8,057 nucleotides of DNA from a virus (lineage: Duplodnaviria; Heunggongvirae; Uroviricota; Caudoviricetes): the IMG/VR virus record IMGVR_UViG_2703718806_000009; one strand, given 5' to 3'. The translations under genes were made by a program, and so were the position numbers. Below the pieces are notes generated by a model. That model made no database searches. It had not been told where the DNA came from and saw only the letters and a program-made list of their open reading frames with translations. Below are positions 1,062 through 8,057 of the stretch, one piece after another. Positions within the stretch are counted from its first letter, which is position 1; the number at the start of each line of letters is the position of its first letter.

Positions 1062-1105
1062 TTGCCTCCATAGTCCACATAGTGTAACACTATGTGTTAT
1101 ATAAA
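1062..1105 (+). promoter_or_regulatory. putative promoter/operator of the toxin-antitoxin operon; 21-bp near-perfect palindrome CACATAGTGTAACACTATGTG at 1076-1096
   Basis: TTGCCT (1062-1067) as a -35-like hexamer, TATATA/TATAAA (1098-1105) as -10-like, and the palindrome overlapping them, ending 24 nt upstream of the toxin ATG (RBS GAGG 1111-1114). Type II TA operons are typically autorepressed by the antitoxin at palindromic operators. Confidence 0.4.
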
Positions 1106-1119
1106 ATGCAGAGGCAGGT

Positions 1120-1492
1120 ATGCGAATTTTCAAAAACGCCTGGTTTGAACGTTTCGCCCGAAAACATCGGATTTCCGATAAATCGCTGCGCAAAATCGTG
1201 GAGCAGGCCGATAAGGGGGATCATATCCGCAAATTTGGGTAGTGGTGTCATTAAACAAAGATTAGCCCGAAGTGGTGGCGGAAAATCAGGCGGTTACCGG
1301 ACAATAATTTTTTACCGCGTTGCAGAAAAAGCCTTTTTCATCTACGCATACGCAAAGAATGAACGAGAGAATATCACTGCTATAGAGGAAAATGCTTTTC
1401 GAAAAGCCGCTCCCCATGTCCTCAATCTTACTGATGAACAGCTGGCACAATTGATTCAACAAGGCCAGTTCACGGAGGTACCCAATGAGTAA
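1120..1492 (+). pseudogene. RelE/ParE-superfamily (HigB-like) mRNA-interferase toxin, interrupted by a +1 frameshift in a G5 homopolymer (1215-1219)
   Basis: Frame 1 from ATG 1120 gives MRIFKNAWFERFARKHRISDKSLRKIVEQADKGDHIRKFG then TAG at 1240-1242. Frame 2 continues ...GIISANLGSGVIKQRLARSGGGKSGGYRTIIFYRVAEKAFFIYAYAKNERENI... to stop 1490-1492. Removing one G restores a single ~123-aa ORF with the GGGKSGGYR..F.Y..KNE motif I associate with this toxin family. The track ORF start at 1094 is an artefact of the shifted frame. Confidence 0.6.
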
Positions 1493-1802
1493 AAATTACC
1501 GCAGTGATGCACTTGCATCTGTACATGAAATGATGGAGTCACTCCATGATATCGGTGCAATCACAAAACAAACTATGCGCGAATTCGATGAAACTTGTCT
1601 TCAGCCTGCGCCGGTAATGTCTCCAGAAAGGATCCGTGCACTGCGAGAACGCGAGCATCTGTCTCAACCTGTTTTTGCCAGATACCTCAACGTCAGTAAA
1701 AACCTGATATCAGACTGGGAACGAGGAGTGAAACGCCCGGGAGGTGCAGCTCTTCGGCTTCTTTCAGTTGTCGAGAAAAACGGGATCCAGGTAATATCCT
1801 GA
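1485..1802 (+). CDS. HTH DNA-binding antitoxin (XRE/YiaG-like) partner of the upstream toxin
   Basis: 105-aa ORF whose ATG overlaps the toxin stop (ATGAGTAA), with GGAGG 7-8 nt upstream. C-terminal half has an HTH-like signature (SPERIRALREREHLSQPVFARYLNVSKNLISDWERGVKRPGGAALRLL). Toxin-first order is typical of HigBA-like modules. Confidence 0.75.
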   Translation: MSKNYRSDALASVHEMMESLHDIGAITKQTMREFDETCLQPAPVMSPERIRALREREHLSQPVFARYLNVSKNLISDWERGVKRPGGAALRLLSVVEKNGIQVIS

Positions 1803-2331: not shown

Positions 2332-2883
2332 TTAAAGCTCCATTAATTTTCCGGCCAGTTCATCTCGTGGCATTACCAGCCATCCGCGCGATTTAAGCAA
2401 AGCCAGGGCTTCTTCAACCGTCACCAGCTGGCCTGGCGCATAACTTCGGATGAAGGCGGTTTTATCGTCACGGATCGCCAGGTGAAAATCGATATTCATT
2501 TTTCCCATAGCCCGCTCTTTCTCGTACTGGTTGAAGTAACTGTCTTCGAGTTTTTCGAATACTTCCCACGCCTGATCGGTTTCGAGCATTTTTGCATGAC
2601 GGGCTGCTCCGCGTTCTGTCCAGAGGATGAGAGTGCGGGTTTTGGGAGAAATTTTCATCTCATTTTGCGACTCGTTTAAAACTAGTCGCAAATTTTTGAG
2701 CTCATCACCAACAGCTTTAAAGAAGTGTTTTCCCTCAATAAATCGAGATTTATTTTCATGGTGATTCTGCTGTATACGGATTGCTTCTGTTCCGTAAAGG
2801 CGGGCGAGTAACTCAGTTGTGATTACAGGAATCTGGTTATAAGTGACAGGGGAAAGGTTTTTGACAGTAACTTGAGTCGTCAT
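2332..2883 (-). CDS. ORF6N/KilA-N-like DNA-binding domain protein (phage antirepressor-like)
   Basis: 183-aa ORF with AGAGGG RBS ~8 nt upstream of the ATG. N-terminal segment IPVITTELLARLYGTEAIRIQQNHHENKSRFIEGKHFFKAVGDEL resembles the ORF6N pattern (..LA.LYG.E...I.QN...N..RF.EG..FF). C-terminal half not recognised. Confidence 0.6.
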   Translation of the reverse strand: MTTQVTVKNLSPVTYNQIPVITTELLARLYGTEAIRIQQNHHENKSRFIEGKHFFKAVGDELKNLRLVLNESQNEMKISPKTRTLILWTERGAARHAKMLETDQAWEVFEKLEDSYFNQYEKERAMGKMNIDFHLAIRDDKTAFIRSYAPGQLVTVEEALALLKSRGWLVMPRDELAGKLMEL

Positions 2884-3044
2884 GATAACGCCCTCTGGTT
2901 GATGAATTTAACTATCACCACCTTCAGGTCTCAATCATCAGGTGGCGAGACGTACAGGGTTGAGACTACCGGATCAACCAACCGGCCAGCCTTTCGGCTG
3001 CCCCATACGCCTCACCATAATTCAGATGTGCGTGCGCATACGAC

Positions 3045-3069
3045 AATAAAAAACACGCTCGCGGCGTGT
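3045..3069 (-). terminator. rho-independent terminator on the minus strand, ending the dicC-replication operon upstream of the ORF6N gene
   Basis: Stem ACACGC (3053-3058) / GCGTGT (3064-3069), loop TCGCG. On the minus strand the hairpin is followed by UUUUUUAUU (complement of 3045-3052). Minus-strand specific. Confidence 0.55.
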
Positions 3070-3154
3070 GTCTGTCGCGGTTGAATATCCGGGGTCTCAA
3101 TCCCGACGGTCAACTCGACCGTGCGGTGAATATAGCCCCGGATTAGTAATTACG

Positions 3155-5016: not shown

Positions 5017-5970
5017 CTACCCCCTGAAACCCGGCGGAATTTCGGTATCCGGTTCAGAAATATGATTCACGCAACGCTGCGCGGGACCACGCCACAGTCG
5101 AATAACCAGTTCATCCCATTTCTCACGGAGTTTTTCCGGGCTCTTGATGTTTTTTATCCAGAACGGATCCCGTTGTGCCCGGCTGAACATTTCGCAAATT
5201 TGTCTGTGACTTCTTCCATCCAGCATCCGCATTGTGCGCACGTCATTGGCCCACGCCGTCCAGTTGGGCTCTTTCGGTCGCGTGATCTCACCATCGTCAC
5301 TGGCAGCCTGTTCGTACAGGTTTACAACCCGCCCCCAGATCCACTGCGCACATGTCAAATCCTCCCGGGTTCCCCACTGGCGTTTTTTCACGCTGAACAC
5401 AACAGCATCAGGATGGCGGGTTAAAAACGCCTGTTCAGCCGTCAACTCGTCCGGTTGCGAAGCGTCCGGACAAGAGAGTTTTTTATTCTCTGTTGTATTC
5501 TCTGTAGGATCATCGGGCCATTTTGACCTGATGACATTGGGCCGTTTTGAACCAATGGAACGTTTCATTTTGACCTCTTCCATCGTGTCATTTTGACCTG
5601 ATGGAGTGGCGCATTTTGACCCGATGGATTCGTTCACTTTGCCATCATCTAAAAGCGCGCTATCGTAGTTAATTGTGTAAAAATTAGTCATATCACGCTT
5701 CGATTTATTGAGCTTTTCGCTACGCAAAAGCCCCAGCGCTTTCAGACTTGCAAACGCACGCTTTAACGTTGACTCTGACCAGAACGGAAACTGTTCCAGC
5801 CATTGTTCCGTTGTGTTGTAAATCCAGCGAACGCCATCACATTCCATGCCGGAACTGGTATCCCTCAACCAGTAATGCAGTTGCTGCAACACAATGGCTT
5901 CGTTTAAACCAATCTTCATCGCCAGCTGTGTGTTTATAACCAGCGGGCGTTCAGCAAAAAGAAGGCTCAT
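5017..5970 (-). CDS. phage replication initiator (O-like replisome organiser) with DnaT-like C-terminal tail
   Basis: Track ORF 5017..6012 begins with a GTG lacking an RBS; the ATG at 5970 (MSLLFAERPLV...) is preferred. C-terminus ...ISEPDTEIPPGFRG matches the C-terminal end of E. coli DnaT (..VSEPDSQIPPGFRG) as I recall it. The middle of the protein is encoded by the iteron array. Confidence 0.85.
   Translation of the reverse strand: MSLLFAERPLVINTQLAMKIGLNEAIVLQQLHYWLRDTSSGMECDGVRWIYNTTEQWLEQFPFWSESTLKRAFASLKALGLLRSEKLNKSKRDMTNFYTINYDSALLDDGKVNESIGSKCATPSGQNDTMEEVKMKRSIGSKRPNVIRSKWPDDPTENTTENKKLSCPDASQPDELTAEQAFLTRHPDAVVFSVKKRQWGTREDLTCAQWIWGRVVNLYEQAASDDGEITRPKEPNWTAWANDVRTMRMLDGRSHRQICEMFSRAQRDPFWIKNIKSPEKLREKWDELVIRLWRGPAQRCVNHISEPDTEIPPGFRG
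5519..5650. repeat. replication-origin-like iteron array inside the initiator gene: 5-6 copies of CATTTTGACC(T/C)GATGG at ~23-bp spacing, followed by a moderately AT-rich stretch
   Basis: Copies at 5519-5533 (CATTTTGACCTGATG), 5543-5558 (CGTTTTGAACCAATGG), 5566-5580 (CATTTTGACCTCTTC), 5589-5604 (CATTTTGACCTGATGG), 5612-5627 (CATTTTGACCCGATGG) and a degenerate 5635-5649 (CACTTTGCCATCATC). Start-to-start spacing 24,23,23,23,23 bp. Same layout as lambda ori within gene O. Confidence 0.7.
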
Positions 5971-6472
5971 AATTCCATCCGGCTTTTTGTTGGTACTGGT
6001 GACGATAGGCACGCTTGAAAGCGATTGCTTTTTCTATAAGCTCGTCTGTCTCACGTTCCACAACAGCTGGATCTGCAAAAAGCAGCCCGGACTCCACCAC
6101 ATCGCCATATTCTTTGTTTAACCCGGCAATCATGTACGTAATGCTTTTTCCGTCAGTAATTTCGCGGTACAACCTGAAATCACTAATCCGGATAGCCTCC
6201 ATAATTGCCGGAATCAGCGCCGTGAATTTTTCACGCTTATCCCTGGTGTCGATAGCCTTCCAGCGTTCGAATATCTTCACCCGGTTAACGCCAAGCGCAC
6301 GCTGATCAACCCCGCCATCATCAAGCGTGACACGCTGAACATCGATGTTCGGGCGTTCCTGTAGAGCCCAGAAGGCTTCAGTGATTAATATCGTCGCCTG
6401 CTCCTGCGTCATTCCTGGTCGGCTTATCCAGGCATCCAGGGCATCGCGTGCCTGCTCAAGGGTGATTTTCAT
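5951..6472 (-). CDS. YdaT-like protein (occupies the cII position between cro-like and replication genes)
   Basis: 173-aa ORF overlapping the dicC stop by 17 nt and the initiator start by 20 nt. Segment DKREKFTALIPAIMEAIRISDFRL resembles my recollection of Rac YdaT (REKIQKLIPAILAILPRELRHRL). Assignment is by memory and gene order. Confidence 0.55.
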   Translation of the reverse strand: MKITLEQARDALDAWISRPGMTQEQATILITEAFWALQERPNIDVQRVTLDDGGVDQRALGVNRVKIFERWKAIDTRDKREKFTALIPAIMEAIRISDFRLYREITDGKSITYMIAGLNKEYGDVVESGLLFADPAVVERETDELIEKAIAFKRAYRHQYQQKAGWNYEPSFC

Positions 6473-6686
6473 TGTTCAACCGCCCCGCCCGCTTCGTCTT
6501 ACGATATTCGTCATAAACTTTGGGGTCATACTGAAGCTCCCCGCCGGATGCCTCTTGCAGGCGCATCGCGCGACCTTCAGGTACTAGCTCCCCTTTCCAG
6601 CTATAAAGCGAAGCCAAACGAATACCAGCAGCTTGTGCAAGTTTTGTTTTTGAACCGAAATACAAAAGTGCATCAGTTTTAAGCAT
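6456..6686 (-). CDS. dicC: DicC-like Cro-type HTH regulator
   Basis: 76-aa ORF divergent from dicA. MLKTDALLYFGSKTKLAQAAGIRLASLYSWKGELVPEGRAMRLQEASGGELQYDPKVYDEYRKTKRAGRLNNENHP matches Qin DicC as I recall it, in length and sequence. Confidence 0.8.
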   Translation of the reverse strand: MLKTDALLYFGSKTKLAQAAGIRLASLYSWKGELVPEGRAMRLQEASGGELQYDPKVYDEYRKTKRAGRLNNENHP

Positions 6687-6769
6687 TTAAAACACCTTGG
6701 TAGTTAGTCATAGCTAACAAAATAAATGTTAACAAAAACATAGTCAATAAGGTTTAGCATTAGCTAACT
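6687..6769. promoter_or_regulatory. divergent dicC/dicA promoter-operator region with repeated operator-like dyads
   Basis: GTTAGTCATAGCTAAC (6703-6718, arms GTTAG/CTAAC) and TTTAGCATTAGCTAAC (6754-6768) in an 83-bp AT-rich intergenic between divergent repressor genes. Confidence 0.6.
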
Positions 6770-7177
6770 ATGGATACAAAAAATTTAACCATTGGCGAAC
6801 GCATTAGACATCGCCGAAAAAACCTCAAATACACCCAAAGGTCTCTTGCTAAAGCCCTGAAAATTTCTCATGTATCGGTTTCACAATGGGAACGGGATGT
6901 TAGCGAACCTACAGGGAAGAATCTTTTTGCCCTCAGCAACGTACTGCAGTGCTCGCCAACATGGATTCTATTTGGCGATGAAGACAAGCAGCCATCACCA
7001 CCTATTGAGGAGCCAGTTGCTCTATCCCCCAAAGAACATGAGCTCCTTGAGCTTTTTAATGCATTGCCTGAATCAGAACAGGATGCTCAGCTCACCGAGA
7101 TGCGCGCCCGAGTAAAAAATTTCAACAAACTCTTTGAAGAGTTATTAAAAGCCCGTCAACGAACAAACAAAAGATAA
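6770..7177 (+). CDS. dicA: DicA-like CI-type repressor (XRE-family HTH), repressor of the dicB division-inhibition operon
   Basis: 135-aa ORF MDTKNLTIGERIRHRRKNLKYTQRSLAKALKISHVSVSQWERDVSEPTGKNLFALSNVLQCSPTWILFGDEDKQP... matches E. coli DicA as I recall it. HTH at residues ~20-40. Confidence 0.9.
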   Translation: MDTKNLTIGERIRHRRKNLKYTQRSLAKALKISHVSVSQWERDVSEPTGKNLFALSNVLQCSPTWILFGDEDKQPSPPIEEPVALSPKEHELLELFNALPESEQDAQLTEMRARVKNFNKLFEELLKARQRTNKR

Positions 7178-7200
7178 CGCAATCAATGCGTTATCTTTTT
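7173..7200 (+). terminator. rho-independent terminator of dicA
   Basis: Perfect 9-bp stem GATAACGCA (7173-7181) / TGCGTTATC (7187-7195), loop ATCAA, followed by TTTTT (7196-7200). The stem overlaps the dicA stop codon. Confidence 0.7.
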
Positions 7201-7212
7201 GGCTGACAAAAA

Positions 7213-7264
7213 TGTTAGTCATGGCAAACAAAACACTTGACCGAACTGTTAGCCATGACTAATC
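7213..7264 (+). promoter_or_regulatory. promoter of the ydfA-dicF-dicB operon with two operator-like sites of the same family as the dicA/dicC intergenic repeats
   Basis: -35 TTGACC (7237-7242), 16-bp spacer, -10 TAATCT (7259-7264). Operator-like GTTAGTCATGGC (7214-7225) and GTTAGCCATGACTAA (7248-7262) are inverted copies sharing the TTAG(T/C)CAT core; the second lies between -35 and -10. Confidence 0.5.
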
Positions 7265-7341
7265 TTGCTTACATCAAGACACCGCACGGTGTTCTCAGCA
7301 AACAGTTCCGCTACCCGGCGTTAAGGGCAAATGAGGTCAAC

Positions 7342-7494
7342 ATGGATACACTCAATCTTGGCAACAACGAATCTCTGGTATGCGGTGTGTTCCCTAACCA
7401 GGACGGCACGTTTACCGCGATGACGTATACCAGAAGCAAAACGTTTAAAACTGAAGCTGGCGCGCGTCGCTGGTTAGCCAGAAACACTAACTGA
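7342..7494 (+). CDS. ydfA: YdfA-like small protein (DUF1391)
   Basis: MDTLNLGNNESLVCGVFPNQDGTFTAMTYTRSKTFKTEAGARRWLARNTN, 50 aa, GAGG RBS 5 nt upstream of ATG 7342. Track ORF 7237..7494 would begin at the -35 box of its own promoter, so the internal start is preferred. Confidence 0.6.
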   Translation: MDTLNLGNNESLVCGVFPNQDGTFTAMTYTRSKTFKTEAGARRWLARNTN

Positions 7495-7757
7495 TTAGCA
7501 CCAGTAAAAACAGGTTGCCACTGGTTAATTTACCCTGAAAAGTCAGGGCATAACACGAAAGCGCACGGAGAAGCTCGTCTCTCTGTACTTTGTCGTTAAA
7601 TTTAATTCGACCGTGCGCTTCCGGTTTTGGCAATCCGCGAAATGGCGCGGCGGTAAGTATGGCTGGGGCTTCCTCCATTGCTCCAGAAAATGCACCGGGT
7701 TGTCAGGTTGACCATACACCTGAGTGACAACACCGCCACAACAACCTCTGTTATCAC

Positions 7758-7797
7758 TTTTCTGGTGATTCGGCGGAAATGGATATCCGCCATTTTT
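7758..7797 (+). ncRNA. dicF: DicF-like small RNA (short variant) ending in an intrinsic terminator
   Basis: UUUCUGGUGA (7759-7768), the 5' motif of DicF as I recall it, then terminator stem GGCGGA (7772-7777) / TCCGCC (7786-7791) and AUUUUU (7792-7797), between ydfA and dicB as in Qin. Boundaries approximate; the 5' end would be made by processing. Confidence 0.45.
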
Positions 7798-7974
7798 AAA
7801 GTGTATTTTGTGATGCGGTGAATGCGGCTAAGCGCACGCGGAACAGTTAAAACAAGCGGTCTTTTACTGGCGTAACAGACATCAACTAACAATCCGGCGT
7901 TAATTGTTAACTGGTTAACGTCACCTGGAGGCACCAGGCACCACATCACAAAATTCATTGTTGAGGACGCGATA

Positions 7975-8057
7975 ATGGAAACGTCACTACCAAACGTTAA
8001 TACGTCTGAAGGGTGTTTTAATATTGGTATTCTGCTCAGTAACCGGGAGTTTACTGA
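7975..8057 (+). CDS. dicB: DicB-like cell-division inhibitor, 5' partial (runs off window end)
   Basis: ATG 7975 with GAGGA RBS. METSLPNVNTSEGCFNIGILLSNREFT resembles the DicB N-terminus (M.T.LPNVNTSEGCF.IG...SN) as recalled; position immediately downstream of DicF. Confidence 0.55.
   Translation, partial: METSLPNVNTSEGCFNIGILLSNREFT

Follow-up and report, generated by a model that had tools for sequence, protein, structure and literature searches.

The DNA that we analyzed, an 8,057-bp stretch that we call the window, contains an allele of the Qin dicC-dicA-ydfA-dicB immunity region, and we consider it likely (probability of roughly 0.8) that this region is a Qin-like immunity switch in which a DicA-type repressor, acting on four related dyads, silences both dicC and the division-inhibitor operon directly. 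The dyads are present in the window, occur there nonrandomly, are under selective constraint, and co-vary with the repressor among related prophages. The operator layout is that of an already known system, which was proposed in 1988 and has been partly validated since, and the operator model offered by a first-pass annotation of this DNA restates that existing proposal and is not new. The useful additions made here, which come from comparing sequences, are a base-resolution consensus, the placement of the predicted dicBp operators, and a comparative case that these sites would belong to the repressor. DicB and DicF are inhibitors of cell division that also affect the use of phage receptors. 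Pinpointing the sites of repressor action would explain how the toxic dicB/dicF genes are silenced and how they are switched on.

Gene content and database matches identified the window as the early-gene region of a lambdoid prophage (Table 1). The best public match was a prophage of E. coli CB6837, with 99.9% identity across window positions 6400 to 7560; this prophage adjoins ompW and has Q, RusA, replication genes, dicB, an exonuclease, an excisionase, and an integrase, and the RefSeq annotation of this best-matching locus gives dicC and an HTH protein. The first-pass annotation had named dicA, dicC, ydfA, and dicB, and protein and nucleotide identity to K-12, together with Pfam matches, bore out all four names. 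The Cro-like protein differs from K-12 DicC by 2 residues and matches the P22 Cro structure 1RZS (E = 3.5e-6). The dicC-like and dicA-like genes are divergent and separated by an 83-bp spacer, as in modules of the Qin type (∼80 bp). The dicA-like repressor, which consists of an N-terminal HTH followed by a short C-terminal domain, shares 91% identity with K-12 DicA, and its helix-turn-helix segment TQRSLAKALKISHVSVSQWER, which holds the recognition helix, is identical in the two proteins. Residues 7 to 71 match structures of the P22 c2 N-terminal domain (1ADR, 2R1J, and 3JXB; E = 7e-19 to 1.6e-18). Pfam detected HTH families only in this protein, with no S24 peptidase domain, and no Ala-Gly (AG) dipeptide or cleavage site occurs across its 135-aa sequence. 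As judged from these features, the repressor would fall outside the Lambda/P22-type cleavable CI class (HTH plus S24) and is consistent with the Gifsy/DicA class (PMC3121763, PMC10448788).

TABLE 1 Features of the immunity region (positions are those of the window)
Feature	Coordinates	Strand	Description
YdaT-family gene	5951-6472	-	
dicC-like cro gene	6456..6686	-	76 aa; Pfam P22_Cro, E = 1.3e-11
Site 1, Oc	6703-6718		GTTAG-TCATAG-CTAAC = GTTAGTCATAGCTAAC; 0 mismatches, perfect dyad
dicC promoter	6719..6747	-	-35 TTGACT (6747-6742), 17-bp spacer, -10 TATTTT (6724-6719); promoter scan
Site 2, Oa	6753-6768		TTTAG-CATTAG-CTAAC = TTTAGCATTAGCTAAC; 1 mismatch; abuts dicA start codon
dicA-like repressor gene	6770..7177	+	135 aa; Pfam HTH_3, E = 2e-15
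Intrinsic terminator	7169..7200	+	Hairpin plus T-run directly 3' of dicA; predicted fold -16.7 kcal/mol, z = -6.6
Site 3, Od	7214-7229		GTTAG-TCATGG-CAAAC = GTTAGTCATGGC(AAAC); 1 mismatch; predicted distal dicBp operator
dicBp -35	7237..7242	+	TTGACC; invariant in 54 haplotypes
Site 4, Op	7248-7263		GTTAG-CCATGA-CTAAT = GTTAGCCATGACTAA(T); 1 mismatch; predicted proximal dicBp operator
dicBp -10	7260..7265	+	TAATCT, 17 bp from the -35; putative role
ydfA-like gene	7342..7494	+	DUF1391, 50 aa; first of the repressed operon; Pfam E = 8.5e-30
DicF, shortened variant	7759-7797		∼39 nt
dicB start	7976		

The terminator scan placed the hairpin at the end of dicA on the minus strand. Its stem carries compensatory changes among alleles (GC..GC versus AC..GT), and this terminator would insulate dicBp. 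The operon beyond it had been described as ydfA-dicF-dicB. The ydfA-like gene, 89% identical in nucleotides to that of K-12, is present as described, as is dicB; dicF is shortened and went unrecognized by Rfam, in which the DicF covariance model (RF00039) had no match in the window at the gathering threshold or at E ≤ 5. Aligned to K-12, this DicF variant retains the 5' seed TTTCTGGTGA, has its body deleted, and ends in a new short terminator hairpin, and ydfB and ydfC are missing from the operon. A small ORF at 672 to 851 was compared with K-12 Rem and had no similarity to it. We also considered the conserved ydfA leader as an HK022-type put RNA and rejected this candidate: it had no blastn similarity to HK022, and putL and putR as read from the HK022 genome look unrelated to it.

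Every site and promoter hexamer quoted in the first-pass annotation is present where it had been placed, and alignment of the four sites yielded one 16-bp dyad, GTTAG-N6-CTAAC, with no more than 1 mismatch at each. At this stringency, the pattern GTTAGNNNNNNCTAAC had exactly 4 matches in the 8,057 bp, against 0.13 expected, and 0 of 200 shuffles reached 4; all of the matches fall within 6703 to 7263, with none elsewhere in the window. The signal was diluted when 2 mismatches were allowed (5 matches, 2.1 expected). The annotation had instead given the shared core as TTAG(T/C)CAT. That motif is indeed enriched in the window (5 copies, 0.33 expected), but site 2, with TTAGCATT, lacks it, and the copy at 5684 is unrelated, so that the feature common to the sites is the dyad arms and not this core; the arms plus a central AT, not the CAT, are the determinant. 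In a scan with a position weight matrix (PWM) that was built partly from the four window sites themselves, these sites scored 24.7, 23.3, 23.2, and 14.5, the last being Oa, and the next best position scored 4.8; by the same scores, Od and Op resemble Oc more than Oa. All four sites have A at dyad position 14 and T at the symmetric position 3. Dyad and PWM scans for a third operator in each promoter region found none above background, and the best candidate for a middle site, GTTAACAAAAACATAG at 6728 to 6743, scored 2.4 with the PWM, versus 14.5 to 24.7 for the four sites. Spacing between sites is 34 bp in the Od/Op region and 50 bp in the Oc/Oa region.

In 1988, Bejar et al. had already proposed operators in the dicA-dicC interval as well as in the interval from dicA to dicBp, as cited in PMC10448788 and PMC3441716. 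In K-12, the 20-mer TTGTTAGTCATAACTAACAA (Oc) is a DicA site on the evidence of titration-relieving mutations, an in vivo operator assay, and a crude-extract EMSA, and an A-to-C change at dyad position 14, which turns CTAAC into CTCAC, abolished DicA binding to it (PMC3441716). DicA at Oc represses dicC, and transcription of dicA needs Oc-bound DicA (PMC3441716). Alignment showed that site 1 of the window is K-12 Oc, GTTAGTCATAACTAAC, with one spacer base different, and it matches the experimentally defined DicA site, including the A at position 14. Site 3 reads GTTAGCTATAGCATAC in K-12, where the CAT of the spacer is not conserved; throughout the alignment, dyad arms are conserved and spacers differ. 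At the second promoter, a dicBp-lacZ fusion located away from Qin was derepressed 22-fold by deletion of dicA and was unaffected by deletion of dicC (PMC10448788). DicC ChIP-seq gave peaks that flank dicA on both sides and a palindromic motif whose halves are TT(A/C/T)G and C(G/A/T)AA, similar to TTAG...CTAA (PMC11430063). By analogy with K-12, we expect that in the window, too, DicA would bind Oc, dicBp would be repressed in a DicA-dependent manner, and DicC would occupy both flanks of dicA.

To describe constraint within this immunity type, we compared 83 loci (80 DicA-type loci from viral contigs, the window, K-12, and one further locus), which comprise 54 distinct haplotypes of the two intergenic regions. 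The arms of Oc (GTTAG/CTAAC) and of Op (GTTAG/CTAAT) were identical in 83/83 loci, and the central AT of both sites was unchanged. The left arm of Od was GTTAG in 82 of the 83 loci, and its right arm was degenerate, reading CAAAC or CATAC. High polymorphism, transversions included, marked the bases immediately left of Oc, the five that separate the -35 from Op, and the interval from the dicA terminator to Od. Invariant arms amid varying flanks are a clean phylogenetic footprint of purifying selection on the arms. Dyad positions 6, 7, 10, and 11 varied by transitions only, giving the consensus GTTAG-YYATRR-CTAAC, which names specific bases to mutate. Oa was nearly invariant among these haplotypes with its spacer included, which suggests additional constraints at the dicA start.

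Oc abuts the -10 of the dicC promoter on its downstream side and lies over the predicted dicC transcription start; the start site of the homologous K-12 promoter has been mapped by 5' RACE (PMC3441716). With the -11 A of the dicC promoter placed as in K-12, the start is predicted near 6712, and Oc would span about -6 to +10. The dicC promoter block was almost invariant in 53 haplotypes. At the other promoter, the last dyad had been placed between TTGACC and TAATCT, and we confirmed this arrangement: Op fills the 17-bp spacer of dicBp and overlaps the first 4 bases of the -10, and the -35 begins 7 bp after Od. The final base of Op is always T where the consensus has C (CTAAT, not CTAAC), a mismatch accounted for by this overlap, since the end of the dyad also forms the beginning of the -10 hexamer. 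The -10 was conserved as TAAT(C/A)T across the 54 haplotypes and is TAAATT in heteroimmune relatives. A generic promoter scan misses TTGACC-17-TAATCT because this -10 matches only 3/6 consensus positions; conservation and the K-12 literature support dicBp as a putative promoter. From a ydfA transcript start predicted near 7272, Op would lie at about -24 to -9 and Od at about -58 to -43.

Many E. coli genomes have the same YdaT and ydfA flanks around a different cro/repressor cassette. Homology breaks just after the dicBp -10, and therefore the dicBp operators travel with the immunity module. We assembled a heteroimmune set of six E. coli loci and 21 loci from other Enterobacterales, which represent about 14 repressor types at <85% identity. 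Wherever the sites could be read by eye, each type kept the four-site layout with dyads of its own (for example, CTTAG-N6-CTAAG or TTGAG-N4-CTCAA). On the cro side, a first dyad separates the cro -10 from the cro start and a second abuts the repressor ATG; downstream of the repressor gene, a third immediately precedes a TTGAC/TTGCC -35 and a fourth is found between this -35 and a TAAATT-like -10, the last two being 34 to 36 bp apart, center to center. In L003, for instance, the dyads are CTTAGATTTTCCTAAG near cro, CTTAGGTTTTTCTACA upstream of the -35, and CTTAGATTATTCTAAA between the -35 and the -10; in the same order, they are TTGAGTTTTCTCAA, TTGAGTTTTCTCAT, and ATGAGAAAACTAAA in L006, GTTAGGTATATCTAAC, GTTAGTTTTATCTAAC, and GTTAGACATATCTAAT in L015, and GTTAGATTTAGTTAAC, GTTAGATTTATTTAAC, and GTTAGTTTAAGTTAAC in L021. 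When Oc was chosen automatically from dyad scores, other AT-rich dyads were wrongly picked in about half of the heteroimmune loci; these loci were read by eye, and the permutation and Mantel tests are independent of that choice.

The dyads of the two regions matched each other within loci. For each pairing of a cro-repressor spacer with the 190 bp that follow a repressor gene, we took the best ungapped 16-mer match; its mean was 14.1 within the same locus versus 12.4 across loci, and 0 of 20,000 permutations reached the observed mean. The more alike two loci were in their repressor N-terminal domains, the more Oc of one resembled the downstream region of the other (r = 0.51, Mantel P = 5e-5). 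Taken by itself, Oc likewise followed the repressor and did not follow Cro (partial r of 0.55 versus -0.05), despite adjoining the cro gene. This co-variation is the strongest available computational support for what would be one repressor-specific operator family at both promoters. The first-pass annotation had proposed a single family, and the constraint on the arms, the co-variation with the repressor, and the published genetics all support it.

How Oa fits into this family is the point on which another reading comes closest. It is nearly an even bet, if slightly short of one, that only Oc, Od, and Op are repressor operators and that Oa, although similar to the dyad, is an element of another kind, either a site preferred by DicC (as lambda OR3 is for Cro) or a part of the dicA promoter or of translation initiation. 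When the window was compared with the published operators, site 1 proved to be the homologue of the established Oc, and site 2 proved identical to K-12 Oa, which, like the other sequence-predicted site, Om, showed no DicA binding in vivo when isolated (PMC3441716, data not shown there); that assay covered isolated sites, with cooperative binding beside other sites outside its scope. CATTAG, the spacer of Oa, does not conform to YYATRR and shows no variation, in contrast to the spacers of the other sites, and the PWM score of Oa is well below the 23 to 25 of the remaining three sites. Two heteroimmune loci, L003 and L005, have near-identical Cro proteins and an identical Oa, yet they differ in repressor and in Oc arms. 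Against a separate element, the similarity of Oa across 13 immunity types followed the repressor more than Cro (partial r of 0.56 versus 0.25), a comparison that is confounded by the linkage of Oa to the repressor gene.

A second alternative holds that Od and Op are mainly DicC (Cro) sites and that DicA represses dicBp indirectly or from elsewhere. In vivo occupancy around dicBp is known only for DicC (PMC11430063), and Reg-Seq reports a DicA site at dicB with low evidence and a location stated as unknown (PMC7567609). Our literature search found no report, in any strain, of direct DicA binding at dicBp (Od/Op), and the text of the ChIP-seq compendium PMC12059191 does not mention DicA. Because both proteins travel with the module, co-variation by itself does not completely distinguish repressor binding from Cro binding. 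Even so, we regard this alternative as very unlikely: Od and Op are closer to Oc, the proven DicA site, than to Oa, and the similarity between Oc and the dyads downstream of the repressor gene follows the repressor N-terminal domain and not Cro (partial r of 0.46 versus 0.03). That the four dyads are chance similarities or neutral remnants of duplication with no regulatory role is scarcely credible; short AT-rich dyads are common in intergenic DNA and the enrichment at 2 mismatches is weak, but the excess at ≤1 mismatch, the invariant arms among varying flanks, the co-variation with the repressor across heteroimmune loci, and the experimental validation of K-12 Oc (PMC3441716) all argue against it.

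Direct repression of both promoters by the DicA-type repressor would then proceed as follows. The short, noncleavable repressor most likely binds GTTAG-YYATRR-CTAAC dyads as a dimer; the arms are centered ∼11 bp apart and thus lie on the same helix face, which fits a dimer contacting successive major grooves. Bound at Oc, it would block dicC and, by analogy with K-12, activate dicA. Past the dicA terminator, Od and Op bracket the -35 of the ydfA-dicB promoter. We infer DicA occupancy of these two sites from their constraint and their co-variation with the repressor. Because Op takes up the spacer and reaches into the -10, a repressor bound there should keep RNA polymerase from binding or from opening the promoter, and the division-inhibitor operon would thus be silenced directly. 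A repressor at Od may contribute cooperativity or hinder upstream contacts. Variation and co-variation together place the DicA operators of dicBp at two predicted 16-bp dyads flanking the -35. The Cro-like DicC probably recognizes the same TTAG/CTAA half-sites and would flip the switch, and Oa may be a weaker or differently used member of the family. As the repressor has neither an S24 domain nor an Ala-Gly site, induction should go via an antirepressor, as it does for Gifsy repressors and for K-12 DicA, which is inactivated by the antirepressor Rem (PMC3121763, PMC10448788).

The central bases of the operators vary in a manner of their own. The YYATRR spacers of Oc, Od, and Op come in 8 to 10 versions among the 83 prophages, and these have recurred independently in the two sequence clades; diversity at dyad positions 6, 7, 10, and 11 is about twice that of dicA synonymous sites. 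P22 operators are dyads as well, and the bases at their center, which are not contacted, tune affinity through indirect readout. A center that changes by transitions only would fit readout of shape or indirect readout here too, and the variation could reflect selection on operator affinity by that route; if affinity is selected, it may, for example, balance repressor titration among several co-resident DicA-type prophages. A palindrome-templated mutation process could also produce such variation, and we consider it doubtful that these positions are under recurrent re-tuning rather than neutral drift.

The closest known system is the K-12 Qin (Kim) cryptic prophage (Bejar et al. 1986/1988; Yun et al. 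2012; Ragunathan et al. 2023), with which the window shares its gene order and 88% nucleotide identity over dicC-dicA-ydfA. The two have an identical DicA recognition helix, an identical Oa, and an Oc one spacer base apart; the positions and left arms of Od and Op, the -35, and the -10 are the same, and ydfA and dicB follow downstream. They differ in that the window copy lies in a fuller lambdoid prophage by ompW, with replication genes, Q, an integrase, and an excisionase, lacks ydfB/ydfC, has a shortened DicF, and reads CAAAC in the right arm of Od, where Qin has CATAC. DicA/DicC bistability has been reported (PMC10448788). Short HTH repressors without a cleavage site, comparable to DicA, include the Gifsy-type GfoR, GtgR, and RacR (Lemire et al. 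2011, PMC3121763), and DicA is explicitly named among this type (PMC3121763). These repressors are controlled by antirepressors (PMC3121763), of which none was identified in the window, where one small ORF (672 to 851) was compared with Rem.

More distantly, the immC region of P22 also has divergent repressor and cro genes with dyad operators at both early promoters, and its proteins are related to those of the window: the DicA N-terminal domain is homologous to that of c2 (E = 7e-19), and DicC is in the P22_Cro family. Unlike the P22 repressor, DicA has 135 aa and no S24 autocleavage domain, and each region has two strong sites, not three, with the half-site GTTAG in place of the P22-type TTAAG. 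The lambda CI/Cro switch is similar in its logic, in that the repressor blocks the cro and leftward early promoters via related operators and activates its own gene. The lambda operators have no detectable sequence relationship to those of the window, and the DicA system has no RecA-mediated cleavage. In place of the three sites of OR1-3 and OL1-3, each region here has two strong ones, spaced at 34 and 50 bp versus about 24 bp in lambda.

The 16-bp operator dyads Oc, Od and Op, in the window and in the same-immunity DicA-type loci from viral contigs (L030 to L109), showed transitions only at dyad positions 6, 7, 10 and 11. An identical set of 8 to 10 YYATRR variants of the dyad centre was found again in both sequence clades, and this recurrence indicates homoplasy. 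Values of pi at the four positions ranged from 0.11 to 0.50, compared with a mean of 0.15 at the 4-fold degenerate sites of dicA.

Two heteroimmune loci of E. coli (L003 and L005) have near-identical Cro proteins and match exactly in the cro -35 region and in the Oa-like site (ATTAGAATTACCTAA), but their repressors differ (∼60% identity), as do their Oc arms (CTTAG in L003 and GTTAG in L005). This combination of shared and divergent parts implies a recombination joint inside the cro-repressor spacer.

A conserved block of ∼70 nt, the ydfA leader (CATCAAGACACCGCACGGTGTTCTCAGCAAACAGTTCCGCTACCCGGCGTTAAGGG), lies immediately 3' of the -10 element of dicBp, the promoter of the operon running from ydfA to dicB, and is retained also across the heteroimmune loci L003, L005, L011, L012, L015, and L023. 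The block appears to fold into two hairpins with compensatory changes between loci: stem I pairs as ACACCG/CGGTGT or AATCAC/GTGATT, and stem II, depending on the locus, as CCC/GGG, GCC/GGC, or CCCTG/CAGGG. The block may be a leader RNA of the antitermination type. Comparison of the leader with Rfam returned no match, and an identity with HK022 putL or putR was rejected because it resembles neither.

Features of the window, with positions and strand
Feature	Position	Strand	Remark
RelE-family toxin ORF, then HTH_3 protein	1094-1802		
sok antitoxin RNA	2055-2229	minus	Rfam, gathering level; adjoins hokD-like ORF
ORF6N-domain gene	2332-2883		
C4 antisense RNA	2938-3022	minus	Rfam, gathering level
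isrK	3048-3122	minus	Rfam, gathering level
Variable centre, Oc	6708-6713		homologous positions in L030-L109
Variable centre, Od	7219-7224		homologous positions in L030-L109
Variable centre, Op	7253-7258		homologous positions in L030-L109
ydfA leader block	7266-7341		
Shortened DicF	7759-7797		
STnc100 match	7790-8007		Rfam, sub-threshold

Further downstream, the DicF locus holds a shorter variant (TTTCTGGTGATTCGGCGGAAATGGATATCCGCCATTTTT) that retains the 5' seed and carries a short terminator hairpin in place of the body. The Rfam DicF model made no call on this interval, either at the gathering threshold or at an E value of ≤5, and the stretch from ydfA to the shortened element lacks ydfB and ydfC. 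Separately, STnc100, a Salmonella sRNA family, gave a match of 33 bits (gathering score, 47; E = 2.9e-5) over the stretch directly 5' of dicB and the dicB start codon.

Elsewhere in the window, C4 antisense RNA and isrK are both typical of the antirepressor/immI-like region that lies 5' of the ORF6N-domain gene. The RelE-family ORF and the HTH_3 protein are a toxin-antitoxin-like pair with the toxin first; in Qin, the cryptic prophage of E. coli K-12, relBE holds this position. The toxin ORF is 132 aa long in the window listing and corresponds to two separate CDSs in the RefSeq match.

DicA immunity regions of the E. coli type (57 to 92% protein identity) were also found on contigs of MAGs from Gram-positive or anaerobic bacteria, namely, Collinsella sp. 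(L009), Bacillota (L019), and Veillonella parvula (L020). Their placement is almost certainly binning contamination from Enterobacterales prophage DNA.
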